Notes under the pieces: model-generated
Database searches by the model: none
What the model was told of the DNA's origin: nothing
Seen by the model: the letters and a program-made list of their open reading frames with translations, nothing else
Shown: positions 3 to 63,425 of the stretch, piece after piece
Numbering within the stretch: the first letter of the stretch is position 1
Layout: each line of letters begins with the position of its first letter
NCBI GenBank assembly: GCA_031551725.1
Contig: JAVBNF010000002.1
Coordinates: forward strand, 2,296 to 66,295
DNA: 64,000 nucleotides
DNA from: Bacteroidales bacterium
GTDB taxonomy: Bacteria > Bacteroidota > Bacteroidia > Bacteroidales > P3
Reading direction: 5' to 3'
Translations under genes and position numbers: made by a program

Positions 3-3000
3 AACGAATGGTACATCTCAGTTTTGTCCAAATATGCCGGAAGATATGCCGCTTATATTTCCAATACAAGCGACAATACAAATACCTACGATGCCTCGGT
101 ACGTACGGTTTCGCACTTGTATCGCGATATCTCTTTACCCGATGGGCATAATCATTTTGTACTGAAATTTTATTGGAAATCAAACGGCTCTACATCCGCA
201 AACTTGAAAGTGTATGCGGTCGAAACTACCGTTGTGCCTGTATCCGGCGTATTGCCGGCATCAGCTGCACTTGGAACTTTTATGCTGTCGGAAAACCAGT
301 GGAAATACGATTCGGTGATACTTCCGGCGAAAGCAAATCAGAATTTCCGGCTTGTATTTACCTGGGACAACGATATAGCCGCTGCTAATCAGCCTCCTGT
401 TACGATTGATAATTTAACAATTACTGCAAGTTGCGCGGCGCCCGTTTCCGAATATCCATACGCTAAACTTATTGAAGCGACAGAAATTGATTTGGCATGG
501 CAAGCCGGCGGCACCGAGTCGGCGTGGGAATTGGCAATGAATGAGGTTTATAAATTCAACCCCAATGATGTCGCTCCGGTTGCCGTTGCAGATTCCCATT
601 TTCGTGTTTTGGCTCCCGGTTATGTGCAGGCCTATTATGTGCGTGCAGTTTGTGGAAACGCGACTTACAGCTCATGGGCAGGTCCGTACATTGTTCCTTC
701 TCCCGTGCCGTTCTTCGAAGATTTTGAAAAAGAAAACGGTTGGTATATTTCCAATAAAGGTTCCGATAATAAATGGATCATTGGCAGTGTTGCCGTTAAG
801 AGCGGCAATGCGTCGGCATACATTTCCAAAGACGATGGTAGTACGAATTCGTATGATGTAACGGACATCAGCGGAGATTATCTGTATCGCGATTTCTTTA
901 TAAAAGGCGGTACGCAAACCGTTCTGAATTTCGACTGGCGTTCGATGGGAACCTGTCCCGGCGCAACCTTGAATGTATATGCGTTGAGTACCGATGTTGA
1001 TATCGAAAACGATTTCTTTTCTGCACTTTCGCCTGCAAATGCGTTGGAATCTTATTCGCTTCAAAATACATGGCAGAACGCAACGGTTAATCTGCCTGTA
1101 TATACGGTAGATACGGTGATACGGCTTGCATTTGAATGGCAGGTTGATATTTTTGGCGGCGCCATAGCTGTAAATCCTCCGGCAGCGGTGGATAATATTC
1201 GATTGCTTCGTTCGCCTGCGCCTGCGCCACGGGCATTTACGGTTTATACACAAGGGATAGATGCTTTTAAGTTAAAGTGGAGCCCTTTTGGAAGTGAGCA
1301 GTTGTGGAAAATAAAATATGCACAAGCTGTTGATTTCGATCCGAATACATCGGGTATTTTTGTTTCTACAACCCAGCCGGAAGTGAATATAACGGGAGTG
1401 ACAACCACTGCTGTTTATGCATTCTATGTGAAAACGTTCAATACTACAGGCGATTCCAACGAATGGGTAGGACCTTATCACAATATCGAAAATTTCGCGA
1501 ACGGCATTTCGGTCGATTGGGAAGCGAGAAACGGTTGTCAACTCAATCGCTGGGAACTGGGAACAGCCGCCGCGTATGTGGATAATTCCAAAACCCTTTA
1601 TATCTCGAGCGATGATGGAGTATCGAATGATTATATACAAGGTCAGACTTCGGTTGTCCATTTTTGCAAAGAAATTATGCTGCAGGCCAAGCAAAAGGCT
1701 GCCAAGATTGAGTTTGATTTGAATATGCAGGAAGAATGTGAGAAGGAATTTTATTTGCGTATATACTTGGTAGATCCGAATATCAAACCTCGTCCGGGAA
1801 CTTCGTTGAGGTATTATGCCGGTGCCCAAATGATTGGAGAGTACAGTATTTCGAATGGATATTTTATAACGAAAACGATTAACCTGCCCGATGTTTTGAA
1901 AGATGTATCCAAGCGATTGGTGTTTTCATTTGAACAGCGTTTTTCGATATGGCCGGTAACTACGGCAACCGTTCCGCCGGCAATCAACAATATCCGCATA
2001 TTGTCCGATGTTTTACCCATTCCTCAAGCCTTGACAGCTTTTCAAACAAGTCCTACATCCGCATTTTTGGAATGGGAAGCAGGATTGAATGAAACAAGTT
2101 GGACCATTGCTTTCGCTGAAGGAATTCAGACAGCCGCTGTAGGATCGAAAATTTCGGTAAACACTCAAAATCGTATTATTTCCATTGATGGAACAAAGAA
2201 TTACACCTTCTGGGTGAGTGCGAATGATGCTGCCGGAAATTCGCTCGAGCGTTACAATGGACCGTTTTTCTTGAATGAAACATTTGAACTGGATGCATTC
2301 AACTTTTCGAAGTTAAGTTTATGGAAAATAAATAATGGTTGTCAAACAAACCAATTTTACCATAGCGACGTTGTTCACCCTCTCGGTGGAAGCGGATATT
2401 CGGTTTATATATCCAATCACGATGGAAATACATATAGCTATGACAGCAGTGCGGCATCGCGAGTTTATATGTCGAGAGATGTGATGTTTCCGGAAGGTTT
2501 TCAGAAAGTGCAATTAACGTTTGATGTAAGAATAAAAGGAGACTGCAGCAGCGATTATCTCGCAGTTTATGCAACAGATCCGGACGATTATGTATTTCCG
2601 GGCACTTGGTTTCTGCCGGATGATAAATATTTACTAAAAAAAATCAGCGACCCTAATGGCATTTCGGGTACAATTGTTATTGATATTCCTAAAGAATTTG
2701 TTGGTAAAAAACGATTGGCATTTGCATGGATCAACGGCCCGGGATTGGCGCACGGAAATCCACCCGCTGCCATTGATAATATCCGCCTAACGGCATCCAA
2801 TATTGTTTATCCGGAACATCTAACTGTTTATCGCGAACGCAATACAGCCCTTAACGACGGCTTTATTGCAAGTTGGGAAAAAATTAAAGATGCCAAGTAT
2901 TATGTTTTGAGTTATGGTGGAAATACGGTGAATGTATATGGAACAGACACCGTTATCCGCATGAATTTAACCGGATTAAATCCTGTTTTTAAAATTCAAA

Positions 3001-6000
3001 CCGTTTACCAAACTAACACGAGCGATTGGTCGCCCGCTGTGAAATTAATTCATGATTTTGAAACGGATGTGGATGCTTGGAAATTGATTAATGAATGCGG
3101 AAATCGTTGGGTAATTGGGGCGAAAGCGACGGCTACGAAAGCGGCTTATATTGCACCTTATGGCAAAGATACAAACGATTACCTGTTTCCGACAAGTTTG
3201 GCATACTTGGCCTTGCCGGTATCATTTCCCACCCATGCCGCATCTTGTCAAATGATTTTTGATTGGCGTTCCTTGGGAGATTATTGCGATTATATGAAGT
3301 TCTTTATTTCCGATGCGTTGCCGAAAGCAGGAGTGGAGATCAATACTTCTTTTACGGATATCCGTTATCGTTTCAAAGATACATGGCAAACCGATACGTT
3401 TAATTTCGATCCATCGTATATAGGAAAGACGGCATATTTAATTTTTGAATGGAGCAATTCTTTTGGGACTGTGAAAAGTCCGCCGATTGCCCTTGATAAT
3501 ATTCGCTTTCAAGCCTCTTCGTGTGGTGCCGCACCAAGAGCGATCACTCCATTTCATCGCGGAAACAATAGTGTCGTTTTAGATTGGACAAACAACGGCC
3601 GAGATACGGCCTGGGATATTTTTTATGGAAGAAAAGGGGATGATATTTCATCTTTTACAACGATTCATACAAAAACAAAGCCTGCCGTTTTTACAATTAC
3701 TTCCGGGATTTCGTACGAACTTTATATGCAGGCATATTACCAAGATGGCTGTAAAAGTGAGCTTTCTCAAGCTGTTTCTTTGGATGAAAACTTCGATCAT
3801 GCCAGCGTTCGTAACTGGAATTTTGTAAATGGAACGCAGCCTAATCAATGGTTTGTCGGTGATGTTGCCGGTCCTGCAAATAATCCTGCGGCATATATTT
3901 CTGCACATTGTGGTGCCGATTATTATAGTTTTGGAGCAAGTCAAACATATTTTTATCGAGATATTACAATTCCTAACGGCTACAGGAAAGTGAAAGTTTC
4001 ATTCGAATGGAAAAATAAAGGCAGTAAAGATGATTATATGCAGGTGGCTTTGGGATATCCTTCGCAAATGCCTGTTCCCGGAGAATATTACCCGGGTGTG
4101 GCCATCCCTGATGCTGCTACCTATTTTTTCGGTGCCGATTGTTGGACATCGGCCTCTGTTGATGTGCCTTCATTTTTTTATGGAAAAACCGCACGCTTGG
4201 TGTTTTCATACAAAACAGTGGGGCTGGGAGTAAGTTCCCCGGCAGCCATTGACAGCATTAGCTTTAGTGTCGATAACTATCCTGCGCCGATAGCGATGAG
4301 TGCATTTTCTAAAACCGACACATCGGCCTTGCTTTCTTGGGCCGCGTTTGGAAATGAAATACGGTGGAAAGTAAAATATGCACCAAGAATGTTTTTACCA
4401 AATGAAACGATAGGCGTAGATTCAATAACGGTTACCGAGAATATGTGTGCAATCTCTCTAAAAACAACGGGCGATTACCATTACTATGTACAGGCAGATT
4501 ATGGAATAGGAGGCTGGAGTACATGGGCAGGGCCTTTCGAATTTAAGGAAACATTTGAAACGGCAAGTGCTGCGCAATGGCATGCGGTAAATGCTTGCGA
4601 AACAAGTCAATGGGTGCTTGGAACTGCTGCCGGTGGAGATGGCAAAACGGCTTACATTTCGAAAGACAATGGAACTACAAATACATACGATAATACCCAA
4701 AAATCCATCGTTTATTTTTATCGCGATATTTATCTTCCGCGCGGATACCAGCATGCATTTATGATGTTCGATTGGAGATCTATGGGGCAAACGGGAGATG
4801 AACTGCAAGTCTATTTGCAAAATATAAACTCTGTACCTGTACCCGGTACAGAGCCTTCCGGAAAACTATTGGGAATATTCTCCGGTTCTTCGCAATGGAA
4901 ATCACAACGTGTGAATTTCGGTATGGATGCAAGCGGTCCCGTCCATTTGCTTTTTGTTTGGAAAAATAAAGTAAGTGCAAGTGCACAGCAACCACCCGTG
5001 GCGATTGATAATATTCAATTTTTCTTGCGTTGTGTTCCGCCTAATGAAATTACAGTTGACCCTACGGTAACGAAAGACCTCGTGAGTGTTATGACCTGGC
5101 AGCAGGGCGAAAGCGAAACCCGTTGGCAAGTGCAATATGGTCCGCAAGGCTTTAATTTGGGCAATGGAACAATTCATAACGTTTCGATTTTGACGGATAC
5201 GTTGAAAAATCTTCAACAAGATGGTTATTATGATACCTATATCCATTCTGTTTGTTCGGAGGTTTCTTTTAGTGATACTGCCGGTCCATATACTTTCCGT
5301 GCACCCGCATTTATCGACATATCCGATAAACTGTCGAACCCGGTGAGTAAACTTGATGGAGCCTCTGCATTATGGATGGATTATGATAATGATAATTTAC
5401 TTGATGTATTTATAAGCGGTTACGATACGGTTATGAAAAAGCCGCGAATGTTTGTATATAAAAACGCTGTTACAGGAAATTTAATTGCTCAAAATGCCGA
5501 ATTTATGGGCTTCGACACGGTATTGGCGTATGGAACATTGAATGCAGTTGATTTCGATAACGACGGAAATATTGACATCTTAATGACCGGAAGTAAAACA
5601 CAGTCGACTGCCGGAGCAGCTGCCTTCCTTTATAAAAACAATGGAGACGGAACGTTTTTGAAATCCTTCATACAGCTTCCTGCTGTTTGGAAAAGTACCG
5701 TCGCTGTCGGCGATTTTAATAACGATGGTTTTCCGGATATTTTGATTGCCGGACAAACACCTAACGGAACTTCGATTACCAAATTATATAAAAATAAAAA
5801 CGGAAAATCACTTCTCGAAAATACAACTGCCTTCCCCTTATTAAATGAAGGAGCAGTGGCTTTCGCTGATTTGCAGAGAAGTGGAGTTTTGGATATTGTT
5901 GTTTCCGGACATTCTGCTTCGAAAATACAGGTGTTTTCCAACAATAAAAACGAAACTTTTACTATTAAATCCATTGACATCCCAAATATGAAACGCAGTG

Positions 6001-8231
6001 CAATTGCTGTTGGCGATGTTGATAACGACGGCTTGCTCGATATTGCTGTCGCCGGAGAGCGTTCTGCCGGAACTTCATCAGCATCCATGTTAATGGTCTA
6101 TAAAAACGGTGGGAATCTGAATTTTACCAATATATACAGTCTCCAAGAATATTGGCGGTCGGGAACCGTCGCTTTCGCAGATTATGATAACGACGGATTT
6201 CAGGATTTGATTTATTCAGGTATTTCCGCTGCCAATCAGTATGAAGCAAAAGTGTTGCAAAATACAAAAACATCATCATTTACACAAGCATCCATTTTTA
6301 AAACCGCAAAAAATCCGAAAATTTATTTTTGTGATTATGATAAAGACAATCGTATTGATGCTTTCCAAGTCAATGAAACCGGCGGATTTTTATATCGAAA
6401 TAAAATAGATGCAGTCAATACAACTCCTCCAAAACCCACAGAATTACGATCGGTAATTGATACTTGCGGCATTACTCCCGATGGACGAACTCCTTGCAGC
6501 GTTGTGCATTTTTATTGGACAAAACAAAACGATGTATTGTCAGGAGTGAATGGAACAACATGTAATATTCGCATATCCGACAATCGGAATACCGTTAATT
6601 TGCGTGCTCCACAAGCCGAAATCCAAGTAATCGACAACGGTTATAAGCGTACGGTTTCACAAGGTGAAATTATTGGAAACACTTGGTCGTATGCCGCATG
6701 CCTATTGGGAGGAACTTATTATTGGAATGTGCAGGCGATTGATGGAAGTATCGAAGGTAGTCCGTTTTCCGATATTGATTCTATTGTAATTCCCAATGTC
6801 TACGCCCAAGCAATGAACGACACCGTTATTTGTTCCGGCGATTCGCTTATGCTATATATGATTGCGGCACAAGAAACGCCCACGTGGTCGGACGGCACAA
6901 AAACATGGGTGCAACCAACTCTCGCGGTATTGCCTAAGCCCGATACATCGTATTACTACGTAAGTGTTCCCGCTCTTTGCGGATTATACAAAGACACTGT
7001 CATGGTGTATGCAAAAAACTGCGATTTGCCGTTTGTGCAATATACGCTTTCGGGAAAAGATACACTGTGTTATTTGGAAACGAACACTATCACGCTCAGC
7101 GGCTCCGAAGAACAAACCTATTACCAACTCTATTTGAATGGCGATACGCTTGGTACGCAAGTTTTGGGCGATGGGAATCCGATTATATGGAGATATACGA
7201 AGCCCGGCGAATATACCGTTGAGGTCTATAGACATAAACGTTTTGAATTTCTGCAAACAAAATTAAAGGTGGTTGTTGATTCAATGCCAATGCTCATTCT
7301 GCCGGGAGATACTACCGTTTGCCAGTATCAAATAGTGAATGCACAGCCTTTCATCTACAATGGAAAATTAGATCCGGCGTTTAATCAATTGGCCTTTCGT
7401 GTTGAACACGATACAACACTTACTGTTACGGCTTCAAATACCTGCGGTCAAGCCAAAGACAGCATTAAAATTATGACACTGCCTGCACCTTATTTTACCT
7501 TTGTCGGCGACACCGCAATTTGTAAAAACGACACCTTGTATTTGAGTATTAATTGTGATGATGCCGCGGCTACTGTTGTTTGGAATACCGGCGAAACAAC
7601 AAAAAATATTCAGAAGCGGATGACGACTTCGCAAAATTTTATTGCAACCACCTATTCGTCAACCAATCAATGCAGCTATACCGATACATTCTCCGTTAGA
7701 GTGGAAAGTATAACAGCACAGTTGGACTATCAGCCCGACCGCATTTATATTGAAGATCCTACCGTTCATTTTGTCGATAGTTCGCAGGGAGCTGTTAAGC
7801 ACTCATGGAAATTTAGCGACGGATATACTTCCTCTGCCGCATCGTTCGACCATACATTCGATTTGTCGTCGGATACCGTTTTAGTGCTTTTGAAAACAAC
7901 TTCCGCGTTTGGCTGTACGGATTCTATTATACAATTATTGCTTGTCGAGTATGGTGTGCGTATTTATGCTCCAACTGCATTTACTCCGAATGGAGACGGA
8001 TTAAACGATGAATTTTATTTGATGATTCCCAATGTTGAAACCATTGAATGGTACGTATTTACACGCTGGGGCGAAAAAATATTTTCTGCCGATAACATTC
8101 AAGCGCGTTGGGATGGCTACTATTCCGGAAAACGCATGCCGCCGGGCGTTTATACGTGGAAAGCAAAATTTAAAGTAGAGAAAAACTCCGAGATTCATAC
8201 TGCTACCGGCTTTGTAACAATTGTTGAATAA
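3..8231 (+). CDS. Giant secreted multidomain surface/adhesin-like protein, 5' end outside window. It has at least 7 repeated beta-sandwich modules alternating with Fn3-like modules, an FG-GAP/VCBS repeat block, Ig-like repeats and a C-terminal T9SS type-B sorting domain
   Basis: The ORF is open to the window edge (frame from nt 3). A module ending motif recurs 7 times: PPVTIDNL, PPAAVDNIRL, VPPAINNIRIL, PPAAIDNIRL, PPIALDNIRF, SPAAIDSISF, PPVAIDNIQF. FG-GAP-like DxDNDGxxDI repeats are present (DFDNDGNIDIL, GDFNNDGFPDIL, GDVDNDGLLDIAV, ADYDNDGFQDLIY). The C-terminus PTAFTPNGDGLNDEFYL...GVYTWKAKF matches the gliding-motility/T9SS type-B CTD. Confidence 0.85.
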   Translation, partial: NEWYISVLSKYAGRYAAYISNTSDNTNTYDASVRTVSHLYRDISLPDGHNHFVLKFYWKSNGSTSANLKVYAVETTVVPVSGVLPASAALGTFMLSENQWKYDSVILPAKANQNFRLVFTWDNDIAAANQPPVTIDNLTITASCAAPVSEYPYAKLIEATEIDLAWQAGGTESAWELAMNEVYKFNPNDVAPVAVADSHFRVLAPGYVQAYYVRAVCGNATYSSWAGPYIVPSPVPFFEDFEKENGWYISNKGSDNKWIIGSVAVKSGNASAYISKDDGSTNSYDVTDISGDYLYRDFFIKGGTQTVLNFDWRSMGTCPGATLNVYALSTDVDIENDFFSALSPANALESYSLQNTWQNATVNLPVYTVDTVIRLAFEWQVDIFGGAIAVNPPAAVDNIRLLRSPAPAPRAFTVYTQGIDAFKLKWSPFGSEQLWKIKYAQAVDFDPNTSGIFVSTTQPEVNITGVTTTAVYAFYVKTFNTTGDSNEWVGPYHNIENFANGISVDWEARNGCQLNRWELGTAAAYVDNSKTLYISSDDGVSNDYIQGQTSVVHFCKEIMLQAKQKAAKIEFDLNMQEECEKEFYLRIYLVDPNIKPRPGTSLRYYAGAQMIGEYSISNGYFITKTINLPDVLKDVSKRLVFSFEQRFSIWPVTTATVPPAINNIRILSDVLPIPQALTAFQTSPTSAFLEWEAGLNETSWTIAFAEGIQTAAVGSKISVNTQNRIISIDGTKNYTFWVSANDAAGNSLERYNGPFFLNETFELDAFNFSKLSLWKINNGCQTNQFYHSDVVHPLGGSGYSVYISNHDGNTYSYDSSAASRVYMSRDVMFPEGFQKVQLTFDVRIKGDCSSDYLAVYATDPDDYVFPGTWFLPDDKYLLKKISDPNGISGTIVIDIPKEFVGKKRLAFAWINGPGLAHGNPPAAIDNIRLTASNIVYPEHLTVYRERNTALNDGFIASWEKIKDAKYYVLSYGGNTVNVYGTDTVIRMNLTGLNPVFKIQTVYQTNTSDWSPAVKLIHDFETDVDAWKLINECGNRWVIGAKATATKAAYIAPYGKDTNDYLFPTSLAYLALPVSFPTHAASCQMIFDWRSLGDYCDYMKFFISDALPKAGVEINTSFTDIRYRFKDTWQTDTFNFDPSYIGKTAYLIFEWSNSFGTVKSPPIALDNIRFQASSCGAAPRAITPFHRGNNSVVLDWTNNGRDTAWDIFYGRKGDDISSFTTIHTKTKPAVFTITSGISYELYMQAYYQDGCKSELSQAVSLDENFDHASVRNWNFVNGTQPNQWFVGDVAGPANNPAAYISAHCGADYYSFGASQTYFYRDITIPNGYRKVKVSFEWKNKGSKDDYMQVALGYPSQMPVPGEYYPGVAIPDAATYFFGADCWTSASVDVPSFFYGKTARLVFSYKTVGLGVSSPAAIDSISFSVDNYPAPIAMSAFSKTDTSALLSWAAFGNEIRWKVKYAPRMFLPNETIGVDSITVTENMCAISLKTTGDYHYYVQADYGIGGWSTWAGPFEFKETFETASAAQWHAVNACETSQWVLGTAAGGDGKTAYISKDNGTTNTYDNTQKSIVYFYRDIYLPRGYQHAFMMFDWRSMGQTGDELQVYLQNINSVPVPGTEPSGKLLGIFSGSSQWKSQRVNFGMDASGPVHLLFVWKNKVSASAQQPPVAIDNIQFFLRCVPPNEITVDPTVTKDLVSVMTWQQGESETRWQVQYGPQGFNLGNGTIHNVSILTDTLKNLQQDGYYDTYIHSVCSEVSFSDTAGPYTFRAPAFIDISDKLSNPVSKLDGASALWMDYDNDNLLDVFISGYDTVMKKPRMFVYKNAVTGNLIAQNAEFMGFDTVLAYGTLNAVDFDNDGNIDILMTGSKTQSTAGAAAFLYKNNGDGTFLKSFIQLPAVWKSTVAVGDFNNDGFPDILIAGQTPNGTSITKLYKNKNGKSLLENTTAFPLLNEGAVAFADLQRSGVLDIVVSGHSASKIQVFSNNKNETFTIKSIDIPNMKRSAIAVGDVDNDGLLDIAVAGERSAGTSSASMLMVYKNGGNLNFTNIYSLQEYWRSGTVAFADYDNDGFQDLIYSGISAANQYEAKVLQNTKTSSFTQASIFKTAKNPKIYFCDYDKDNRIDAFQVNETGGFLYRNKIDAVNTTPPKPTELRSVIDTCGITPDGRTPCSVVHFYWTKQNDVLSGVNGTTCNIRISDNRNTVNLRAPQAEIQVIDNGYKRTVSQGEIIGNTWSYAACLLGGTYYWNVQAIDGSIEGSPFSDIDSIVIPNVYAQAMNDTVICSGDSLMLYMIAAQETPTWSDGTKTWVQPTLAVLPKPDTSYYYVSVPALCGLYKDTVMVYAKNCDLPFVQYTLSGKDTLCYLETNTITLSGSEEQTYYQLYLNGDTLGTQVLGDGNPIIWRYTKPGEYTVEVYRHKRFEFLQTKLKVVVDSMPMLILPGDTTVCQYQIVNAQPFIYNGKLDPAFNQLAFRVEHDTTLTVTASNTCGQAKDSIKIMTLPAPYFTFVGDTAICKNDTLYLSINCDDAAATVVWNTGETTKNIQKRMTTSQNFIATTYSSTNQCSYTDTFSVRVESITAQLDYQPDRIYIEDPTVHFVDSSQGAVKHSWKFSDGYTSSAASFDHTFDLSSDTVLVLLKTTSAFGCTDSIIQLLLVEYGVRIYAPTAFTPNGDGLNDEFYLMIPNVETIEWYVFTRWGEKIFSADNIQARWDGYYSGKRMPPGVYTWKAKFKVEKNSEIHTATGFVTIVE

Positions 8232-9166
8232 TGCGTATCAAATCCAATAAATTAAAAGATATTCGTCGTTTTTTTCTTTCGGAATTGAATACATTCTATT
8301 CTGAAAGGGAAATTGATAACTTCTTTTTTCTATGTTGCTACTCATTTTCCAATTTGGGAAAAACGCAAGTCCTTTCAAACCTTGAAAAAACCGTTAGCGA
8401 AAGCGTTTTGCTGAAATATAACTTTGCAGTAAAAGATTTAAAAAATCAAAAACCCATTCAATACATTTTACATACGGCACATTTCTTCGATTTGGAATTA
8501 GAAGTTGATGAAAACGTTTTGATTCCGCGTCCCGAAACGGAAGAACTCGTTGCTTGGATTTTGGAAGAAACCAAACCTCATTCAATGCTTGCCGATTTTT
8601 GTACCGGTAGCGGATGCATTGCGCTTGCGCTGAAAAAGCATCATCTTGAACTACAAATCCAAGCATTTGATATCTCAAAAGAAGCATTAAATATTGCCAA
8701 AAAAAATGCGCAAAAATACAGTTTGGATGTTGATTTTGTTGAAAAAGATGTTTTGCAAACAGAATTATTTTCAGATGATAAATGGGACGTCATTGTAAGC
8801 AATCCGCCTTATGTCCGTAATTTGGAAAAACAGCAGATGCATGCCAATGTCCTCAATTACGAGCCGCATTTGGCGCTATTTGTTGATGATGAAAACCCGT
8901 TGATTTTCTACAAATCCATACTGAAAATTGCACAAAAATCATTAAATCCCAACGGTGTCATTTATTTTGAAATAAACGAAGCCTTGGCGCAAGAAACCAT
9001 CGAACTCGCAAATCAAATGGGGTTTCCAAATCACGAATTGCGCATCGACATGCAAAATAAAAACCGCATGTTGAAATTAACCAATGGGCAAACACGTGGG
9101 TTTGCCTCTACAATCCTCAACCCTCAATCCTCAACCCTCAACCCTCAACCCTCAACCCTTAAATGA
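8231..9166 (+). CDS. prmC: Peptide chain release factor N5-glutamine methyltransferase
   Basis: NPPY motif (VSNPPYV) and SAM-binding DFCTGSGCIALAL. The ATG overlaps the upstream stop (TAATG). The C-terminal tail is encoded by a heptamer repeat. Confidence 0.85.
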   Translation: MRIKSNKLKDIRRFFLSELNTFYSEREIDNFFFLCCYSFSNLGKTQVLSNLEKTVSESVLLKYNFAVKDLKNQKPIQYILHTAHFFDLELEVDENVLIPRPETEELVAWILEETKPHSMLADFCTGSGCIALALKKHHLELQIQAFDISKEALNIAKKNAQKYSLDVDFVEKDVLQTELFSDDKWDVIVSNPPYVRNLEKQQMHANVLNYEPHLALFVDDENPLIFYKSILKIAQKSLNPNGVIYFEINEALAQETIELANQMGFPNHELRIDMQNKNRMLKLTNGQTRGFASTILNPQSSTLNPQPSTLK

Positions 9167-9972
9167 GCCGCTATTTCGCACATATCGCCTACAACGGAAA
9201 ACCCTTTCACGGCTGGCAGGAACAAGAAAATGCCATTACTGTGCAAGGTGAAATCCAGCGTGCACTATCGCTATTGCTGAAACAAAAAATCGAAATCGTT
9301 GGTGCCGGCCGTACCGATACCGGCGTTCATGCCCGTTCCTATTATTTCCATTTCGATTGGGTAAGGGCTCAAGATTTTGAGTCCCTGCAATCCTCAACCC
9401 TCAACCCTCAACCCTTGCTCTACAAACTCAACAACTTCCTCTCACACGAAATCGTCATTTATGATATTTTTCCTGTGAAACCCGACGCTCACGCTCGTTT
9501 CTCTGCGCTTTCGCGAACATACAAATACTACATCAACTATCAAAAAAATCCGTTCCAACAAGATTTTGCTTGTTATTATTATGGAAAATTGGATTTGGAT
9601 TTGATGAATCAAGCTGCGCAAAAATTGTTTGATTATACCGATTTCACTTGCTTTTCCAAACTCCACTCGCAAACGAAAACCAACAACTGCAAAATCATGC
9701 AGGCCTTTTGGACAGAAGAAAACGGACAATACGTTTTCACCATTCAGGCCGATCGTTTCTTGCGCAACATGGTGCGTGCCATTGTCGGCACTTTATTTCA
9801 GGTGGGATTACACAAAATTTCTATTGAAGAATTTTGCCAAATCATCGAAAGTAAAAACCGCTGCAACGCCGGCACCTCCATGCCCGCCCATGCTTTATTT
9901 TTAGAAGAAGTGGAATACGACTGGACGCAATTATTAATTGTTAATGAGAAGGCAATACTCCGAAGAAGTTAG
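9163..9972 (+). CDS. truA: tRNA pseudouridine(38-40) synthase TruA
   Basis: N-terminus YFAHIAYNGKPFHGWQEQ and catalytic GAGRTDTGVHA. ATGA overlap with prmC. Confidence 0.9.
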   Translation: MSRYFAHIAYNGKPFHGWQEQENAITVQGEIQRALSLLLKQKIEIVGAGRTDTGVHARSYYFHFDWVRAQDFESLQSSTLNPQPLLYKLNNFLSHEIVIYDIFPVKPDAHARFSALSRTYKYYINYQKNPFQQDFACYYYGKLDLDLMNQAAQKLFDYTDFTCFSKLHSQTKTNNCKIMQAFWTEENGQYVFTIQADRFLRNMVRAIVGTLFQVGLHKISIEEFCQIIESKNRCNAGTSMPAHALFLEEVEYDWTQLLIVNEKAILRRS

Positions 9973-10140: not shown

Positions 10141-10148
10141 TATCTTTG
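10141..10148 (+). promoter_or_regulatory. Bacteroidota -7 promoter box TATCTTTG
   Basis: Exact match to the TAnnTTTG consensus, upstream of the structured leader and the FISUMP gene. Confidence 0.5.
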
Positions 10149-10195
10149 CACAAACAAAAACAATTTATATAGAAAAAACACTAATTAAACATAAA

Positions 10196-10370
10196 TAAAA
10201 AAAGCGTAAGCTTAAATTCTTGTAACGAAAACGGCCAAAATTTTCACAATCAAAGAATTCGTAAGCGATGCGCTCATGCTGTGTTCCGGCGTGAGTTGTG
10301 TCTTATTTTGATTGTGGGTGCTTGGCCGTACCTCGTTGCAAATAAGAATTCAACTCGCGCCTTTTTATTT
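10196..10370 (+). ncRNA. Conserved structured leader element, copy 1 (unassigned family), ending in a U-tract
   Basis: Aligns with 48384-48555. A 48-nt core is identical (10262-10309 = 48449-48496). Three flanking helices keep complementarity through compensatory changes. Confidence 0.55.
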
Positions 10371-10429
10371 ACATACAGCCCCTTCGGGGCTTGTTGGAAA
10401 TGAAATTAACAAACAAAATAAAACACAAC

Positions 10430-12727
10430 ATGAAAACAAATTTACAATTTCCGAATGCGGCCTGTACGGGTTACCCTTGCGGTTGCCCTGCCAATGAAAA
10501 TGCGCCATCGCTTGCTGTACGGGCACCCCTTGCGGTTGCCCCTTTGAACGACAATGTACGGGCGTATTGCATACGCCCATCAAAAGGGCACCCGCAAGGG
10601 GTGCCCCTACGATTTGCCCAATGGATTTTTCTGCAATTCTGCATTTTTGCATTTCTGCCCATTTTCGCTCAAACGGTTGGCACAACCAAAACCTTCACCG
10701 ATACTCGCGACGGACAAGAATACAAAGCCGTCTTCATGCCCGACGGACGCTGGTGGATGGCTGAAAATCTAAAATACCGCAAGGATTTGACAAATCCGGT
10801 GTTTTCGAATATGCCTGTCATTACCAATACACAAGCGAGTTTACAAGCACAGTATTACTGTCCCGGTTATGGTCCGCTTGTAGCGGGGGTTGGAGCTACA
10901 CAAGCAGATCCGGTGGCTTGCGAATATTGGGGAGTACTGTATCCTTGGTGGGCGGCAATGATGATTCGGAACGATGGAAGCGCGCCTTATTATTCTGATT
11001 TAGCAGGATCGCAAGGCATTTGTCCGCAAGGCTGGCACTTACCCAGCGATAAAGAATGGGGATATTTGTTAGATTCTGTGGAACGGAGTTTTAATCCGGC
11101 TTACGCGCTTTTACATACGACAACGACAACCGCTTATTACGGAACAACTTCAACCAACAAAGCTGGTTCTTATCTGAAATCAAGCAGTGTGCAAGCCGGA
11201 AATTGTGAAGAATGCAATCCTAAATGGATTTCGGGCACTTCAACTGATAACTATGGTTTCAATGTAATCCCAACAGGCTATAGAACCTGGAATGGCGCTT
11301 CGTATGTCGGCCGGGGAAGCGAAACCTATTTTTGGACATCCACCAAATCGACAACGGCTAATTATGCCATTTACAGAGGTTTCACGGCAGCAGAAGTCCG
11401 TGCAGGCCGCTGGGATGGATACGCTTCCTATGGGCTTTCTGTTCGTTGTGTAGAAGGAGGATATGCAAAGATAGAACTGACATTATGTCAAAGTAACGAC
11501 GTGTACGAGATAGCAGTGAAAAATTTTGTTAATTACACGAAATATGTTTTCAGCATTGATGATGTGGATCAAACTGAAAGTGTTGAGTCTTATCGCTTCT
11601 TTAAGTCTTCGGATCTTGGTAAAAGAATTAAGGTTAGAGGGTATACCACTGAAGGAGCTTGGAGTGCTGTTTCCGAAGAGTTAATTATTGGAGAAGCAAT
11701 GGATACAATTCCGAATGCACCTCGTTTAGCTGTGAACACAGGTTCTGCGACAGGGTACAATGTCGCAATAACTACGACGGCTACTGCTATTCCGGGATGT
11801 ATTGTAAATTTTTTAACCACAGCTTCCAATGGAGCTATTTCAGCAGCAAATACTTTGACTTATGGAGGGACTCAATATACCGTTTATGCAGCCAGCGTGA
11901 ATCTATCTAATGGTTGTGTCAGTTCCGATCGGGGAATGTCGACGGTTATTCTCTACTCGGGGAATTATGTGCAACGAAATTTAATTCCGGGTACCTATCA
12001 AATGGAATGCTGGGGGGCCAAAGGAGGTAATAATGTCGGCGGATACTATGGTACGGGAGGGAATGGAGGTTACACTAAAGGCTTGCTCACTCTTTCAAAT
12101 ACAGATACGGTTTACGTATATGTAGGAGCATTGGGGGTGAATGGCGTCACAGGAAATAATACATATACGTCTGCTATCTATAATGGTGGAGGGCAAGGAC
12201 GTAGTTCTTGCGATTATGATGATGGTGGAGGAGCTGGAGGTGGAGCATCTGATATACGTTTGCTTCCGGGGGCATGGAATTTATCAAGTGGATTGAAGAG
12301 TAGAATTATGGTTGCAGGTGGTGGTGGCGGCGGCGATATTGTGCAAGCGTATGCTGTTAGTGGTGCTCATGGAGGAGGATTGACAGGAGTTGGAAATGTA
12401 CAGTATTGGCCAAATGTTGTTGTAAGTGGAGCATCCGTTAATGGAACACAAACATCTGGTGCGAGTTTTGGAGGTGGTGGAATAGGCTGGTGTGGCAACG
12501 GCGGCGGCGGTGGCGGTTATTACGGCGGAAAAAGTAATGGTGGTGGTGGTGGTGGATCTGGTTTTATATCGGGTCATCTTGGATGTGATGCCATTACAAG
12601 TGAAACAGATGGAACGCATACCGGCCAACCTAATCACTATAGTGGACTGGTCTTTACAAATACCACCATGTCGGCAGGTGTTCGTAATAGCTATGGGTCG
12701 GTTGTCATTGTCCGCACTGGAAATTAA
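10430..12727 (+). CDS. Secreted FISUMP (Fibrobacter succinogenes major paralogous) domain protein with Ig-like middle region and C-terminal glycine-rich domain
   Basis: TFTDTRDGQEYKAVFMPDGRWWMAENLKY...YGLSVRCVEG is the TIGR02145-type signature. The C-terminus has GTYQMECWGAKGG...GGGAGGGASDIRL...VAGGGGGG glycine-rich repeats. ATG at 10430 was chosen by alignment with the paralogue start (AAAACACAACATGAAAACA). An in-frame GTG at 10601 is an alternative start. Confidence 0.8.
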   Translation: MKTNLQFPNAACTGYPCGCPANENAPSLAVRAPLAVAPLNDNVRAYCIRPSKGHPQGVPLRFAQWIFLQFCIFAFLPIFAQTVGTTKTFTDTRDGQEYKAVFMPDGRWWMAENLKYRKDLTNPVFSNMPVITNTQASLQAQYYCPGYGPLVAGVGATQADPVACEYWGVLYPWWAAMMIRNDGSAPYYSDLAGSQGICPQGWHLPSDKEWGYLLDSVERSFNPAYALLHTTTTTAYYGTTSTNKAGSYLKSSSVQAGNCEECNPKWISGTSTDNYGFNVIPTGYRTWNGASYVGRGSETYFWTSTKSTTANYAIYRGFTAAEVRAGRWDGYASYGLSVRCVEGGYAKIELTLCQSNDVYEIAVKNFVNYTKYVFSIDDVDQTESVESYRFFKSSDLGKRIKVRGYTTEGAWSAVSEELIIGEAMDTIPNAPRLAVNTGSATGYNVAITTTATAIPGCIVNFLTTASNGAISAANTLTYGGTQYTVYAASVNLSNGCVSSDRGMSTVILYSGNYVQRNLIPGTYQMECWGAKGGNNVGGYYGTGGNGGYTKGLLTLSNTDTVYVYVGALGVNGVTGNNTYTSAIYNGGGQGRSSCDYDDGGGAGGGASDIRLLPGAWNLSSGLKSRIMVAGGGGGGDIVQAYAVSGAHGGGLTGVGNVQYWPNVVVSGASVNGTQTSGASFGGGGIGWCGNGGGGGGYYGGKSNGGGGGGSGFISGHLGCDAITSETDGTHTGQPNHYSGLVFTNTTMSAGVRNSYGSVVIVRTGN
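10464..10610. repeat. Cluster of four GTACGGGC-type palindromic (REP-like) units inside the 5' coding region
   Basis: Units at 10464-10488, 10517-10542, 10556-10578 and 10586-10610 (the last inverted). Same family as 17229-17253 and 30267-30290. Confidence 0.8.
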
Positions 12728-12931: not shown

Positions 12932-13007
12932 CATGCCTAAATTCTCTATTTTTGAAAAATTGTCTCTTCATTAACAATTAACCATTAATAATTAATAATT
13001 ATTTTTG

Positions 13008-13015
13008 TATCTTTG
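13008..13015 (+). promoter_or_regulatory. -7 promoter box TATCTTTG for dnaX
   Basis: TAnnTTTG match 9 nt upstream of the ATG, implying a very short leader. Confidence 0.5.
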
Positions 13016-13023
13016 CATCTGCT

Positions 13024-14760
13024 ATGGAAAACTACATCGTATCCGCCAGAAAATATCGTCCCGAAACATTCGATACTGTTGTTGGGCAGTCTGCCATTAC
13101 CACAACGCTGAAAAACGCCATCAAAAGCGGACATTTGGCGCAAGCTTTCTTGTTTTGCGGTCCGCGTGGAGTAGGTAAGACTACTTGTGCGCGTATTTTG
13201 GCCAAAACCATCAACTGTTTGAATCCGACGGAAGATATGGAAGCCTGTGGCGAATGCGAATCCTGTGTAAGTTTCAAAAACTCGAACTCCTATAATATTT
13301 ACGAACTCGATGCCGCTTCAAACAACTCTGTGGACGACATCCGCAGTTTGGTTGAACAAGTGCGTATTCCGCCCCAAGTTGGCAAATACAAGATCTATAT
13401 CATCGATGAGGTTCACATGTTGTCGCAAGCCGCTTTCAACGCGTTCTTGAAAACACTGGAAGAACCGCCGGCTTATGCCAAATTTATTTTGGCCACGACC
13501 GAAAAACATAAAATTATCCCAACTATTTTGTCGCGTTGTCAAATATTTGATTTCAAACGCATCAAAATCGAAGATATTGCAGGACATTTGGCCAATATCG
13601 CTGCCAAAGAAGGCGTAACGGCCGAGCCCGACGCTCTACATATCATCGCTCAAAAAGCCGATGGTGGTTTGCGCGATGCCTTGTCCATGTTCGACCAGTT
13701 GGTCAGCTTCGCCGGAAATCATTTGACTTACGACCGCATCATTGATAACTTGAACGTTCTCGATTACGATTATTATTTCAAAATTGTAGATGCTTTCCTT
13801 GCCGGAGATGTTTCTACTTGCTTGATTTTGTTCAATCAAGTTATGGAGCGCGGTTTCGATGGACAGCATTTCATTACTGGTCTTGGCGAACATTTGCGCA
13901 ATCTTTTGGTTTGCAAAGATCCCGGAACAATTGAATTGATTGAAGTAGGGGAGAATATTAAAGAAAAATATTTGAAACAATCGCAAACATGCACGGTGCC
14001 TTTTATCATCAAAGCGCTTGACGTGAATAACCAATGCGATCAGAACTATAAAGGAAGCAACAACAAACGCTTGTGTATCGAAATAGCATTGATGAAAATC
14101 TGTTCATTTCAAATGCAAATGAACGATGTGCCTGCGCAACCGGTTTCTATTCCGCACCCCACACCCCGTACCTCGAACCCTGTACCCGCTCATCCGGATG
14201 GACACGCTACGCAAGCCATTACGCCCCCTCAACCATTATCAACTCCGGTTCAAAATATTGAACCGCTCCAATCCTCAACCTCCAATCCTCAACCCTCGTT
14301 CCGAAGCTCCACGCCCTCATTAAAAAACATCGGTCAACCCACCGAGGACGAAAAAAAAAAATCAATAATTGAGGAAGTTGCTCCAGTCGAAAACAAACCG
14401 CTTTCAAAAAATACCCTCGAAGCGCTGATTTTGGAATTTGCCAAACAAATTGAAACAACATCTCCTTCTACATCAAGCGTTTTAATCGCTTCAAATCCAA
14501 CTATCGACGAACGAAATCTTATTTGCCTGGAAGTCGTAAATCGCATTCAAGAGTCAGATATAAAGGATGTTCGATTGGATTTATTAGGGTTTTTGAAAAA
14601 ACGTGCAGAAAATAATTTATTGCAAATTGAAATAAAAATCAACGAGCAACGCACCAAAGAAGTTTTATACTCTCCTCAAGATAAGTACAACAAAATGAAA
14701 GAGGAAAATCCTCATTTATCCGAATTACGTAAGGCGTTAGACTTGGACTTGGAACTCTAA
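13024..14760 (+). CDS. dnaX: DNA polymerase III subunit gamma/tau
   Basis: ARKYRPETFDTVVGQ, Walker A GPRGVGKTT, zinc module CGECESC. Low-complexity P/S/T-rich linker. Confidence 0.9.
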   Translation: MENYIVSARKYRPETFDTVVGQSAITTTLKNAIKSGHLAQAFLFCGPRGVGKTTCARILAKTINCLNPTEDMEACGECESCVSFKNSNSYNIYELDAASNNSVDDIRSLVEQVRIPPQVGKYKIYIIDEVHMLSQAAFNAFLKTLEEPPAYAKFILATTEKHKIIPTILSRCQIFDFKRIKIEDIAGHLANIAAKEGVTAEPDALHIIAQKADGGLRDALSMFDQLVSFAGNHLTYDRIIDNLNVLDYDYYFKIVDAFLAGDVSTCLILFNQVMERGFDGQHFITGLGEHLRNLLVCKDPGTIELIEVGENIKEKYLKQSQTCTVPFIIKALDVNNQCDQNYKGSNNKRLCIEIALMKICSFQMQMNDVPAQPVSIPHPTPRTSNPVPAHPDGHATQAITPPQPLSTPVQNIEPLQSSTSNPQPSFRSSTPSLKNIGQPTEDEKKKSIIEEVAPVENKPLSKNTLEALILEFAKQIETTSPSTSSVLIASNPTIDERNLICLEVVNRIQESDIKDVRLDLLGFLKKRAENNLLQIEIKINEQRTKEVLYSPQDKYNKMKEENPHLSELRKALDLDLEL

Positions 14761-19370: not shown

Positions 19371-19675
19371 TTTGCTGATTTTTGATTGCTAAATTGTGAA
19401 AATGATTCATTGCCGTCAGCTTCAGCTGACGGATTTGGAATGGTTACAAAATCATTCGGCTTTAGGTAGAGAAATTGTAATTTTATTTGCATCTACTGCG
19501 TAAATCTGCGCAATTTTTTAAAATCTGCGATAAACCGAGCCGCAGGCGAGCTCATGAGCCGATAGGCGAATAAACAGTCAGCGAAGCTGACCATTACGCG
19601 TAGCGTTACCGCAAAATAAAAATAATTGTTTCCTTTCATTAACAATTAATCATTAATAATTAACAATTATTTTAT

Positions 19676-19683
19676 TATCTTTG
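19676..19683 (+). promoter_or_regulatory. -7 promoter box TATCTTTG
   Basis: TAnnTTTG match 9 nt upstream of the ATG at 19692. Confidence 0.5.
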
Positions 19684-19691
19684 TACATCAA

Positions 19692-20396
19692 ATGACACCA
19701 AACAAACTATATCTCATCCCCACCGTTATAGGTGATGTGCCGTGGCAGCAAGTGCTTCCGCCGGCAAACATTGATGTGGTTGCAAGCATCCGTACATTCA
19801 TTGTCGAAGATGTGCGCACCGCCCGCCGTTTCCTGCGCAAGTTCGGATATACGGCCAATTTCGATGAAGTAACGTTTTTGGAATTAAACCAGCATTCAAA
19901 ACCCGAAGAAATTTCTACCTATTTAAATAGTATCAAACAAGGTTCTATCGGCTTACTTTCTGAAGCCGGCGTGCCTTGTGTGGCCGACCCCGGTGCGGTG
20001 ATTGTGAAAATGGCCCACGAGAAAAACATCGAAGTTGTTCCATTGGTCGGACCGTCCTCCATATTAATGGGCTTGATGGCATCCGGTTTCAATGGACAAA
20101 ATTTTGCGTTTATCGGTTATCTACCGATTGACAAACACGAACGTTCGAAAAAAATTAAGGAACTCGAAACATGGATATATAAAAACAGCCAAACACAAAT
20201 TTTTATCGAAACGCCTTATCGAAATAATGCATTATTAGATGCTCTTTTCGAAACGTGCAATCCGCAAACCAAACTTTGCATCGCCGCCAACATCAGCATG
20301 GAAAACCAATTCATTAAAACAAAATCCATCGCCGATTGGAAAAAATCCAAACCCGATTTATCCAAACAAAACACGGTGTTTTTAATATATAAATAA
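19692..20396 (+). CDS. SAM-dependent methyltransferase, tetrapyrrole-methylase fold (RsmI-like)
   Basis: LYLIPTVIGD...SEAGVPCVADPG...VPLVGPSS resembles the RsmI/TP_methylase family. Confidence 0.7.
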   Translation: MTPNKLYLIPTVIGDVPWQQVLPPANIDVVASIRTFIVEDVRTARRFLRKFGYTANFDEVTFLELNQHSKPEEISTYLNSIKQGSIGLLSEAGVPCVADPGAVIVKMAHEKNIEVVPLVGPSSILMGLMASGFNGQNFAFIGYLPIDKHERSKKIKELETWIYKNSQTQIFIETPYRNNALLDALFETCNPQTKLCIAANISMENQFIKTKSIADWKKSKPDLSKQNTVFLIYK

Positions 20397-20467
20397 GTTT
20401 CAAAGTTTCAATAGTTTCAGATGTTTGATTGAAACCAGAAACCAGAAACTAAAAACCAGAAACTAAA

Positions 20468-21727
20468 ATGAAGCCTCTCGCCGAACTCCTCCGCCCCCAA
20501 ACACTCGAAGACTACATCGGGCAAAAACACCTGATGGGAGAGGGGGCCGTTTTGCGCAAAGCCATTGAAAGCGGAAACATCCCGTCCATGATTCTTTGGG
20601 GACCTCCCGGCGTTGGAAAAACCACGCTGGCACAACTCATTTCAAACTATCTGAACAAACCGTTTTTCACGCTTAGCGCGATAAGTAGCGGAGTGAAAGA
20701 AGTGCGCGAAGTAATCGAACATGCAAAACAATTGCAAAATGCAATTCTGTTCATCGATGAGATCCATCGGTTCAACAAATCACAACAAGATTCGTTACTC
20801 AATGCGGTCGAGCGCGGCATCATTACTTTGATTGGTGCAACAACTGAAAATCCTTCATTCGAAGTTATCTCGGCTTTGCTTTCGCGCTGTCAAACGTACA
20901 TTTTAAAAGCCTTTGATGAAAATGATTTAATCGATATGTTAAATCATGCCGTAAAATATCTTAAAGAATCGCAAAACATAGAAATAGTTTTAGATGAAAC
21001 GGAAGCGCTATTGCGTGTGTCGGGCGGCGATGGTCGCAAACTCTTAAATGCACTCGAATTAGTTGTCAATTCATCGAAAATAGAGGGGGCGTTGCACATT
21101 ACCAACCCAATGGTGTTGGATATTGTGCAGGCAAATCTTGCCATGTACGACAAAGGCGGTGAAATGCACTATGATGTCATTTCTGCCTTTATCAAATCCA
21201 TCCGCGGAAGCGATCCCAATGCCGCCGTATATTACTTGGCACGCATGATTAATGGCGGCGAAGATCCCAAATTCATCGCTCGCCGATTACTTATTTTGGC
21301 TTCCGAAGACATTGGAAATGCCAATCCCAACGCGCTTTTACTTGCAAATGCTTGTTTTGAAGCCGTGCATAAAGTCGGATATCCGGAGTGTCGCATTCCG
21401 TTGAGTCAAACCACAATTTATCTGGCAACATCGCCCAAAAGCAATGCTTCATACGTGGCCATTGACGATGCGTTAGCTTTGGTTGAAAAAACAGGAAACT
21501 TGCCTGTGCCTTTGCATTTGCGCAATGCGCCAACGAAACTGATGAAAAATATTGGTTATGGCAAAGAATATAAATACGCTCACAGTTTTGAAAATAATTT
21601 TGTAGAGCAAGAATTCCTTCCGGAAAAAATCGAGGGAACTACATTTTATGCTCCGCAAAACAATGCCAAAGAACGCGATATTAAAAAATTCTTGAATTTC
21701 CTTTGGAAAGGAAAATATGGGTATTAG
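20468..21727 (+). CDS. rarA: Replication-associated recombination protein A (AAA+ ATPase)
   Basis: LRPQTLEDYIGQKHL, Walker A GPPGVGKTT, Walker B LFIDEIHRFNK, C-terminal MgsA domain DPNAAVYYLARM. Confidence 0.92.
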   Translation: MKPLAELLRPQTLEDYIGQKHLMGEGAVLRKAIESGNIPSMILWGPPGVGKTTLAQLISNYLNKPFFTLSAISSGVKEVREVIEHAKQLQNAILFIDEIHRFNKSQQDSLLNAVERGIITLIGATTENPSFEVISALLSRCQTYILKAFDENDLIDMLNHAVKYLKESQNIEIVLDETEALLRVSGGDGRKLLNALELVVNSSKIEGALHITNPMVLDIVQANLAMYDKGGEMHYDVISAFIKSIRGSDPNAAVYYLARMINGGEDPKFIARRLLILASEDIGNANPNALLLANACFEAVHKVGYPECRIPLSQTTIYLATSPKSNASYVAIDDALALVEKTGNLPVPLHLRNAPTKLMKNIGYGKEYKYAHSFENNFVEQEFLPEKIEGTTFYAPQNNAKERDIKKFLNFLWKGKYGY

Positions 21728-21898
21728 TAGAATGCCTCTACCGCGTAAATTTGCGTAATCTCCGAAAATCAGCGATTACCTCTCGCCGTGAGGCGAAATT
21801 ACACACAGCGTCCCGTGCAATAAAAAATATATTTGCATGGTTGAATCTACGTGAATCTACTCTTTGTAAATATTATTAAAAAATCCCCAATATTTTTG

Positions 21899-21906
21899 TA
21901 TCTTTG
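21899..21906 (+). promoter_or_regulatory. -7 promoter box TATCTTTG
   Basis: TAnnTTTG match about 90 nt upstream of the ATG at 21997. Confidence 0.45.
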
Positions 21907-47176: not shown

Positions 47177-47181
47177 TACAA

Positions 47182-63423: not shown

Positions 63424-63425
63424 GG

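Follow-up and report, generated by a model that had tools for sequence, protein, structure and literature searches.

Terminator-based attenuation of transcription is textbook biology in Proteobacteria and Firmicutes. For Bacteroidota, discussions of gene control usually centre on sigma/anti-sigma pairs, hybrid two-component systems and small RNAs (sRNAs); to our knowledge, attenuation has barely been documented in this group, and attenuators of the classical type have been little described in Bacteroidales. Here we describe a conserved leader RNA of ~180 nt that precedes two, probably three, paralogous genes encoding FISUMP surface proteins in an uncultured Bacteroidales bacterium (GenBank assembly GCA_031551725.1), found in a stretch of 64,000 nucleotides of contig JAVBNF010000002.1 (positions 2,296 to 66,295 of the forward strand; hereafter the window, in whose own numbering all coordinates are given). 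The general principle of attenuation by terminator, antiterminator and anti-antiterminator has been summarised previously (PMC3369936), and the leaders of E. coli trp and of B. subtilis pyr (PyrR) and trp (TRAP) resemble the element in having four ordered segments with mutually exclusive 1:2, 2:3 and 3:4 pairings, a GC-rich 3:4 stem followed by a U-tract, and a weak 1:2 hairpin that could need a factor to win. In contrast to these classical attenuators, with which it has no sequence or Rfam similarity, the element carries a putative antiterminator side that is complementary to the entire ~75-nt terminator instead of a few nucleotides, its presumed read-through state is a rod of ~70 bp, its segments 1 and 4 also pair, its host belongs to the Bacteroidales, and the downstream gene encodes a surface or secreted protein and not a biosynthetic enzyme. 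The class that suits it best is that of terminator/antiterminator leaders, here with an antiterminator of unusual completeness, and our leading interpretation, held tentatively and at slightly less than even weight, is that of a cis-acting transcription attenuator in FISUMP-family leaders, built from four pairing segments (1:2, 2:3, 3:4).

The two full-length copies are located at 10193-10370 (copy 1) and 48379-48554 (copy 2), both on the + strand. In BLAST, the homology between them extends over 10183-10371 and 48365-48555 with 85% identity over 195 nt, beginning upstream of the rod in a flank common to both copies (AATTAAACAT, 10183-10192 = 48365-48374), and a second block (10404-10445 vs 48555-48595) spans the start codon; when each leader was searched against the 64-kb window, no copy beyond these two was found. 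A 48-nt core (TAAGCGATGCGCTCATGCTGTGTTCCGGCGTGAGTTGTGTCTTATTTT) is identical at 10262-10309 and 48449-48496. Other blocks identical in both copies comprise 13 nt at 10201, 13 nt at 10234 and 11 nt at 10316, the longest of these further blocks being one of 32 nt at 10340-10371 (AAATAAGAATTCAACTCGCGCCTTTTTATTTA). A third copy was recovered as a fragment at the beginning of a Logan contig (L001, run SRR23967709), which opens with AACTCGCGCCTTTTTATTTA and has, 40 nt further on, the ATG of a third FISUMP paralogue; its protein (P0019) combines FISUMP and ALK_LTK_GRD domains, and the copy-2 protein was found in the same run. The last of the four pairing segments (a', see below) and the U-tract are unchanged in this third paralogue, and its start region (AATTCATAATTAAATAAAACACACCATG) is the same as in copies 1 and 2. 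The element was thus accompanied by a FISUMP gene in 3/3 cases. A covariance model (R1) was built and run over 181 kb, where it retrieved copy 1 (211 bits), copy 2 (188 bits), their weak reverse-strand echoes and the L001 fragment, and nothing else. All comparisons of full-length sequences below refer to two paralogous copies from one genome/sample. Position 1 of L001 falls inside the 3' block known from all three copies, and position 1 of another Logan contig from the same run (L007) falls in the start-codon region common to copies 1 and 2; contig breaks inside blocks of the leader are consistent with a multi-copy repeat that fragments short-read assemblies, from which copies may be systematically missing.

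Each copy folds alone as an unbranched rod (-67.8 and -65.2 kcal/mol, z -7.3 and -7.7, 0/200 shuffles as good for each copy), with ~70 bp arranged in helices P1-P7, an apical loop UGUUC at 10282-10286, no branch points, internal loops of at most 6 nt, and a longest unbroken helix of ~12-14 bp. Three helices of the rod vary between the copies. In copy 1 their 5' arms (10221-10254) are at 10221-10228 (P4), 10231-10238 (P5) and 10243-10254 (P6), and their 3' arms (10307-10340) at 10333-10340, 10322-10329 and 10307-10318, respectively; the corresponding arms of copy 2 are at 48409-48415:48519-48525 (P4), 48418-48425:48508-48515 (P5) and 48430-48442:48493-48504 (P6), all on the + strand. Between the copies, two pairs of P4 are substituted on both sides, another goes from G.U to A-U and one base pair is deleted; P5 shows a single G-C to C-G swap, and up to six of the inner nine pairs of P6 differ. 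On the structure-guided (covariance-model) alignment, in which 97% of 139 cells are paired, seven pairs changed on both sides (three in P4, one in P5 and three in P6), compared with 0-1 when the partners were slid by 1-3 columns; a comparison of the two independent minimum free energy (MFE) folds gave up to nine two-sided changes plus one deleted base pair, with 0 disruptions in P4-P6. An earlier note on this DNA, made from the sequence alone, had described an unassigned rod-like RNA with the 48-nt identical core and with compensatory changes in three named helices, and had read these as selection on a folded RNA. Its core was found exactly where it had been placed, all 12 helix-arm strings that it quoted occur at their positions, the covariation falls precisely in P4-P6, both copies are strongly structured, and selection on the fold is supported by this covariation, by an asymmetry between the strands and by conservation of the leader far beyond that of the coding sequence. 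Regarding the strands, the + strand contains 8-10 G.U pairs and its fold is more stable by 6-10 kcal/mol than that of the reverse complement, which speaks for an RNA and against a DNA palindrome; the source of this asymmetry is the G.U wobble pairing of the 5' half with the terminator strands. Regarding the coding sequence, the two FISUMP proteins of the window are 52% identical over their best-aligned 236 residues, and third positions of conserved four-fold codons are 40% identical, i.e., near saturation, so the leader, 85% identical between such old paralogues, must be under constraint. Gene conversion was disfavoured as the source of this similarity, as patchy identity interleaved with compensated helices is not its expected product.

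A purely DNA-level origin, either as a MITE-like or selfish inverted repeat or as a quasi-palindrome kept symmetric by template switching, would need no RNA function at all. The whole element is indeed an imperfect palindrome, assembly contigs break at it, and template switching during replication can mimic compensatory changes, producing them in one step and without selection (PMC8794818). Against such an origin, the homology passes both ends of the rod, to AATTAAACAT upstream and through the ATG downstream, no convincing target-site duplication or consistent flanking direct repeat was seen at the two copies, the copies stand solely before paralogous genes and in the same orientation, and BLAST against phages and plasmids gave no match to the element. 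Moreover, its loops are more conserved than its helices and conservation of the leader far exceeds that of silent coding sites, and neither these features nor the G.U pairs and strand asymmetry fit a DNA palindrome, which we regard as very unlikely. A MITE or dispersed palindromic repeat, the alternative that the earlier note had itself raised, was rejected: there are two copies in 64 kb, both before FISUMP paralogues and with flanking homology on both sides. Correia elements of Neisseria and enterobacterial ERIC sequences are imperfect palindromes of 100-180 nt that occur in 5' leaders, form long RNA hairpins and can affect mRNA processing, with tens to hundreds of dispersed copies in unrelated contexts and with defined ends. 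By contrast, the two to three copies of the element belong with a single gene family, share homology in their flanks and covary in their interior helices.

The 3' half of the element (10284-10372; 48471-48557) folds by itself into a hairpin, here termed H3' (-34.5 and -35.4 kcal/mol, z -6.3, 0/200 shuffles as good). In copy 1 (10288-10361) it is composed of T1 (10288-10298:10351-10361, 11 bp, GGCGUGAGUUG with CAACUCGCGCC, including 7 G-C pairs), T2 (10301-10308:10340-10347, 8 bp, UCUUAUUU with AAAUAAGA) and T3 (10316-10321:10328-10333, 6 bp, GGGUGC with GUACCU), and in copy 2 it spans 48475-48545, with T1 at 48475-48485:48535-48545. Directly after T1 follows a U-tract (UUUUUAUUU, 10362-10370 and 48546-48554) that is identical in the three copies. 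H3' therefore has the form of an intrinsic terminator, a stable GC-rich stem-loop abutting a U-tract of 7-9 nt, and gene-end terminators of the same A-tract/GC-hairpin/U-tract form occur elsewhere in the window (e.g., 19330, 12905, 46001 (-), 51625 (-), and 60128). The 5' half (10193-10283), which holds segments 1 and 2 and is the proposed antiterminator strand, is only weakly and not significantly structured on its own (z about -1.5). These predicted folds refine the initial description of a simple rod: the rod appears to be one of two competing structures, and the 3' half a self-contained terminator, which would account for the invariance of the core and of the 3' block.

The four segments are AGCGUAAGCUU (segment 1, a, 10203-10213), AUGCGCUCAUGCUG (segment 2, b, 10268-10281), and the 5' and 3' strands of T1 (segment 3, b', GGCGUGAGUUG, and segment 4, a', CAACUCGCGCC). 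Their duplex energies are -20.6 kcal/mol for 3:4, -14.8 for 2:3 (b:b'), -9.4 for 1:2 (a:b), and -6.5 for 1:4, an order that matches a classical attenuator with its terminator, antiterminator and anti-antiterminator. The apical hairpin of the rod (10267-10302), formed by segments 2:3 and rich in G.U pairs, sequesters 9 of the 11 nt of the terminator 5' strand, and the rod and the two-hairpin state are mutually exclusive. Once segment 4 has emerged, the calculated energies of the rod and of the two-hairpin state are -62.6 vs -50.5 kcal/mol in copy 1 and -57.9 vs -51.0 kcal/mol in copy 2; because the rod is favoured at this point, the model predicts it as the default outcome unless the 5' half is occupied.

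We propose that transcription starts at a TAnnTTTG box upstream, that H3' terminates it and the rod does not, and that a factor acting in trans sets the choice. Segments 3 and 4, with the two inner helices between them, would form a stand-alone intrinsic terminator running into UUUUUAUUU, while segment 2, located just upstream, would pair with segment 3 in the apical hairpin as a classical antiterminator does. After nucleation of 2:3, the rest of the 5' half could zip onto the terminator through P6, P5, P4 and P3 to give the long rod, in which a' would be left with a weak, irregular partner (a). RNA polymerase would then read through and the A-rich start region would remain unpaired, so that the gene is ON. 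Pairing of segment 1 with segment 2 would act as an anti-antiterminator, freeing segment 3 and allowing the terminator to form; similarly, a factor that holds or masks the 5' half (a protein, an sRNA or a ribosome are candidate kinds) would let the terminator form and turn the gene OFF.

The distribution of substitutions is consistent with two folds. All 25/25 pairs of H3' are invariant between the copies, and within the 3' half the differing columns amount to 0/50 in the H3' helices vs 10/38 outside of them (Fisher p = 1e-4); the variation is confined to the 3' arms of P4, P5 and P6, i.e., of helices that exist in the rod only, that covary, and that lie in the loops of H3'. Over the whole element, 2/57 columns differ where the nucleotide is paired in both folds vs 31/126 elsewhere (p = 3e-4). 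As far as the sequences allow this to be judged, nucleotides with two partners thus appear frozen and those with one partner covary, and the apical core would be invariant because it must pair with two partners. In addition, a copy-2 substitution that breaks a rod pair (column 25/160) is offset by an A-U to U-A change in the hairpin on the 1:2 side. Such a signature between paralogues (dually paired positions frozen, singly paired ones covarying) could be of general help for finding bistable RNAs for which no orthologues are available.

This pattern also bears on the possibility, which we consider unlikely though it has more in its favour than the other rivals, that the rod is a constitutive double-stranded RNA (dsRNA) module, serving as a processing or stability site for RNase III or another dsRNA-binding protein (with effects on mRNA half-life or 5'-end maturation), and that the hairpin of the 3' half is a mere folding intermediate. 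With ~70 bp and a z-score of about -7.5 the rod is the MFE structure by a wide margin, the covariation supports its helices directly, and its internal loops are conserved in sequence, as would be expected of features recognised by a protein. However, a dsRNA module leaves unexplained that the 3' half, and not the 5' half, is a near-perfect terminator abutting a conserved U-tract and that substitutions avoid exactly the helices of H3', and the modest length of the longest unbroken helix speaks against it as well. The RNase III-processed leader hairpins of E. coli rnc, pnp and adhE have no embedded stand-alone terminator. The element resembles them as a long irregular hairpin upstream of a start codon, the integrity of which could set translation or stability, but differs in having such a terminator and in lacking any homology to them.

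Several points weigh against the attenuator interpretation. At the decision point, the thermodynamic ground state is the rod, by a margin of 7-12 kcal/mol, and because only 1 nt separates the 4-bp GC stem at its end from the U-tract, the rod might act as a terminator as well. For the 1:2 hairpin, which is weak, there is only one compensatory pair. H3' exhibits no covariation since it never varies, so its support is indirect, through substitutions that avoid its helices, and its invariance could have another cause, e.g., a protein-binding site. The two-sided changes come from a comparison of paralogues within one genome/sample, to which the template switching mentioned above also applies, and the antiterminator role of the 5' half is assigned by analogy.

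Boxes of the Bacteroidota -7 type are located at 10141-10148 (TATCTTTG, + strand), with transcription presumably starting near 10154, and at 48289-48296 for copy 2 (TACCTTTG, + strand, with a TTTG ~20 nt upstream). Counted from these boxes, both FISUMP leaders would measure ~275-280 nt, in agreement with the ~280 nt that had been proposed for copy 1 and with its assessment as unusually long; leaders in Bacteroidota are typically short, the median 5' untranslated region (UTR) in B. thetaiotaomicron being 32 nt (PMC7366714). Short leaders of neighbouring genes, which the earlier note had contrasted with it, were likewise found: in several genes a TAnnTTTG box lies 5-8 nt before the ATG (13008-13024, 19676-19692, and 47169-47182), a spacing that implies, on the letters of the DNA, leaderless or near-leaderless mRNAs, unlike the ~275-nt FISUMP leaders. 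Between the box at 10141 and the ATG at 10430 of copy 1, no further + strand TAnnTTTG was detected. Within the element of copy 2, a TATTTTTG box (48491-48498) occurs where T2 meets P6; it is absent from copy 1 and could start a transcript that lacks the terminator 5' strand. Between the element and the ATG, no promoter box common to both copies was found, and the gene must therefore be read through the element. The same absence argues against an sRNA of ~215-255 nt, derived from the 5' UTR or independent, that would begin at the TAnnTTTG box, end at the U-tract and act in trans, leaving the FISUMP gene to be expressed by leak-through only. The element is bracketed by a promoter box and a terminator-like end, and in Bacteroides, sRNAs derived from UTRs and ending at terminators have been described (PMC7366714), but the element accompanies a FISUMP gene in every case and no target can be proposed for it except the family's own start region, which makes this explanation quite improbable.

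The translation initiation region is A-rich, with a core (AAAUAAAACACAAC) followed by the AUG (10404-10429 in copy 1; core at 48566-48579 in copy 2, + strand), and is conserved in the three paralogues. In the rod fold it is unpaired (mean unpaired probability 0.91 in copy 1 and 0.72 in copy 2). A stretch of the element at 10295-10315 (+ strand) is complementary to it in 19/21 nt, the part common to both copies being GUUGUGUCUUAUUU (10295-10308; 48482-48495 in copy 2). A translational switch or cross-talk between paralogues might thus operate, in which GUUGUGUCUUAUUU, once freed from the rod by cleavage, by a factor or in trans, pairs with AAAUAAAACACAAC 5' of its own or a sister FISUMP AUG and blocks initiation. 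In favour of this are the complementarity itself (13/14 nt in both copies, 19/21 in copy 1), RNAduplex energies of -19.9 and -14.9 kcal/mol that 0/500 shuffles equalled, the unusual conservation of the start region across three paralogues and its accessibility in the rod. On the other hand, neither the rod nor H3' leaves the anti-start stretch unpaired, and when the 5' half was removed, the start region of copy 1 was largely free (mean unpaired probability 0.96) and that of copy 2 partly sequestered (0.45). The extension of the complementarity in copy 1 has no counterpart in copy 2, and the start region resembles the 3' strand AAAUAAGAAUUCAAC, so that an ancient duplication may have left this match behind. 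We consider such a switch improbable. Hardly more probable is an extension of the attenuator model in which the leaders form a family-wide control circuit, with one bistable rod/terminator RNA per paralogue. A shared trans factor, or the sister leaders, would recognise what is invariant in this RNA (terminator, loops and 14-nt anti-start-site sequence), and through the private, covarying P4-P6 each antiterminator would remain restricted to its own terminator. If true, such a circuit could, by RNA-level control alone, lead to coordinated or mutually exclusive expression within a surface-protein family.

The invariant core also contains a candidate mini-ORF of eight codons (AUG CGC UCA UGC UGU GUU CCG GCG UGA, MRSCCVPA, 10269-10295, + strand) that spans segment 2, the loop and part of segment 3, and a ribosome translating it might decide which hairpin forms, as in attenuation by a leader peptide. 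Its AUG lies in segment 2 with an A-rich region upstream, a position analogous to that of the main AUG, and it ends within the terminator 5' strand. Since the ORF lies wholly in the invariant core, coding selection is not assessable; its start is buried in both folds, its Cys-Cys codons have no obvious link to a surface protein, and in classical systems the peptide overlaps segment 1 and not segments 2 and 3. We therefore rate this mechanism as the least probable by far.

Among other systems with a competing fold, ANTAR and BglG/SacY-type antiterminators are comparable in that a plausible protein-stabilised structure competes with a terminator. Their defining motifs (two tandem hexaloop hairpins for ANTAR, the RAT hairpin for BglG) are not evident in the element, and no ANTAR or BglG/SacY-type regulator gene adjoins either copy. 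6S RNA is likewise a rod of ~180 nt, from which the element differs by having no large central bubble, by being multi-copy and by residing in mRNA leaders; it was rejected based on internal loops of at most 6 nt, no 6S match at E<=10, and two to three copies, all in leaders. A metabolite riboswitch was rejected as well, given an unbranched hairpin and no exact-block homologue in GTDB species genomes, JGI metagenomes or IMG/VR. Integron attC sites, invertible promoters, retrons and diversity-generating retroelements (DGR) were ruled out on anatomy.

The element matched no family in Rfam 15, in line with its previous description as unassigned: at gathering scores, the only hit in the whole window was a tRNA at 51629-51702, and at E<=10 the two copies returned only 12-17-bit miRNA- or snoRNA-shaped chance matches, far below the cut-offs. 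The scans of sequence collections used exact or gapped sequence blocks. Scans of IMG/VR with the core 23-mer, the 3' 19-mer and a gapped P5-loop pattern gave 0 matches or one chance match in coding sequence; an exact scan of GTDB species genomes with the 3' 19-mer gave five matches, all unrelated, and one of JGI metagenomes with the core 26-mer gave none. A gapped base-of-rod pattern retrieved three GC-rich, unrelated matches, and a concatenated six-frame peptide query, aimed at spurious ORFs across the element in other assemblies, found nothing. The host lineage appears to be poorly sampled, as the best non-self relatives of its MnmA are only ~80% identical and belong to Bacteroidales (e.g., Ca. 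Symbiothrix, Ca. Azobacteroides, Dysgonomonadaceae, and Microbacter). In one relative that was checked (P0130, 80% identical, three contigs), no FISUMP gene was located beside mnmA.

If confirmed, the element would represent a clean and experimentally tractable attenuator of unusual design, with an antiterminator complementary to the whole terminator, and would place an expanding FISUMP surface-protein family of unknown function under dedicated RNA-level control. As had been noted, the two genes downstream of the element are FISUMP paralogues, and both carry Fib_succ_major, which was found in no other gene of the window: a FISUMP + ALK_LTK_GRD gene at 10430-12727 (paralogue 1) and a FISUMP gene with two Fib_succ_major domains at 48580-50439 (paralogue 2), both on the + strand. 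The closest FISUMP homologues (P0002-P0020) are 36-43% identical. In more distant FISUMP genes (L015, L016-L020), leaders are short or absent, and the element is thus not common to FISUMP genes in general.

Several insertions were observed around the start codons. An insert of ~33 nt between the U-tract and the start region is present in copy 1 only (10372-10404) and contains an extra GC hairpin (CAGCCCCUUCGGGGCUUG, 10377-10394, + strand) with a UUCG loop, which resembles a second small terminator-type hairpin with no U-tract. Within the copy-1 FISUMP ORF, a GC-rich repeat insert of ~165 nt (10455-10620) is located between the first nine codons and a signal-peptide-like stretch; it is in frame and stop-free, contains direct repeats (27 nt, at 10462 and 10515) as well as inverted arms with 90% complementarity (31 nt each, 10517-10547 and 10580-10610), and has a REP/REPIN-like look. 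Because this insert splits the early codons from the signal-peptide-like stretch, the true start codon of the copy-1 gene is uncertain. The copy-2 gene has a different insert of ~17 codons (48589-48640), with an inverted repeat (ATGCAGAAAT...ATTTCTGCAT), between MKT and the signal peptide, and in the third paralogue (L001, 59-130) a plain signal peptide directly follows the ATG. With inserts in copies 1 and 2 and none in L001, the ATG and the start region have evidently been kept even where the N-terminus is disrupted.

Further features of the window were noted as well. A 49-nt AT-rich stretch that ends in the -7 box TATCTTTG occurs with 92% identity at 12967-13015 (upstream of dnaX) and 19635-19683 (before a gene starting at 19692), and also at 21875-21908, and looks like a common promoter cassette. 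Tandem heptanucleotide repeats (CCTCAAC and variants) are located inside the housekeeping methyltransferase, truA and dnaX ORFs (9089-9157, 9366-9420, and 14247-14301) and GAAACCA-type heptamer runs at 20431-20482 and 23238-23289; they may represent insertions of low complexity, in frame, of a kind typical for this genome. A type V-A CRISPR-Cas locus (60680-63989) comprises an array of ~12 repeats with a 64-nt period (repeat ATCTACAATAGTAGAAATTTAAAGGGTCGTCTTGAC on the + strand), followed on the - strand by a small ORF (61614-61889, candidate cas2), cas1 (61902-62870), cas4 (62857-63423) and a Cas12a-like RuvC/NUC C-terminus that is cut by the window end. At the opposite end, a giant ORF of 2735 aa (24-8231) contains internal repeats with a period of ~720-756 nt.

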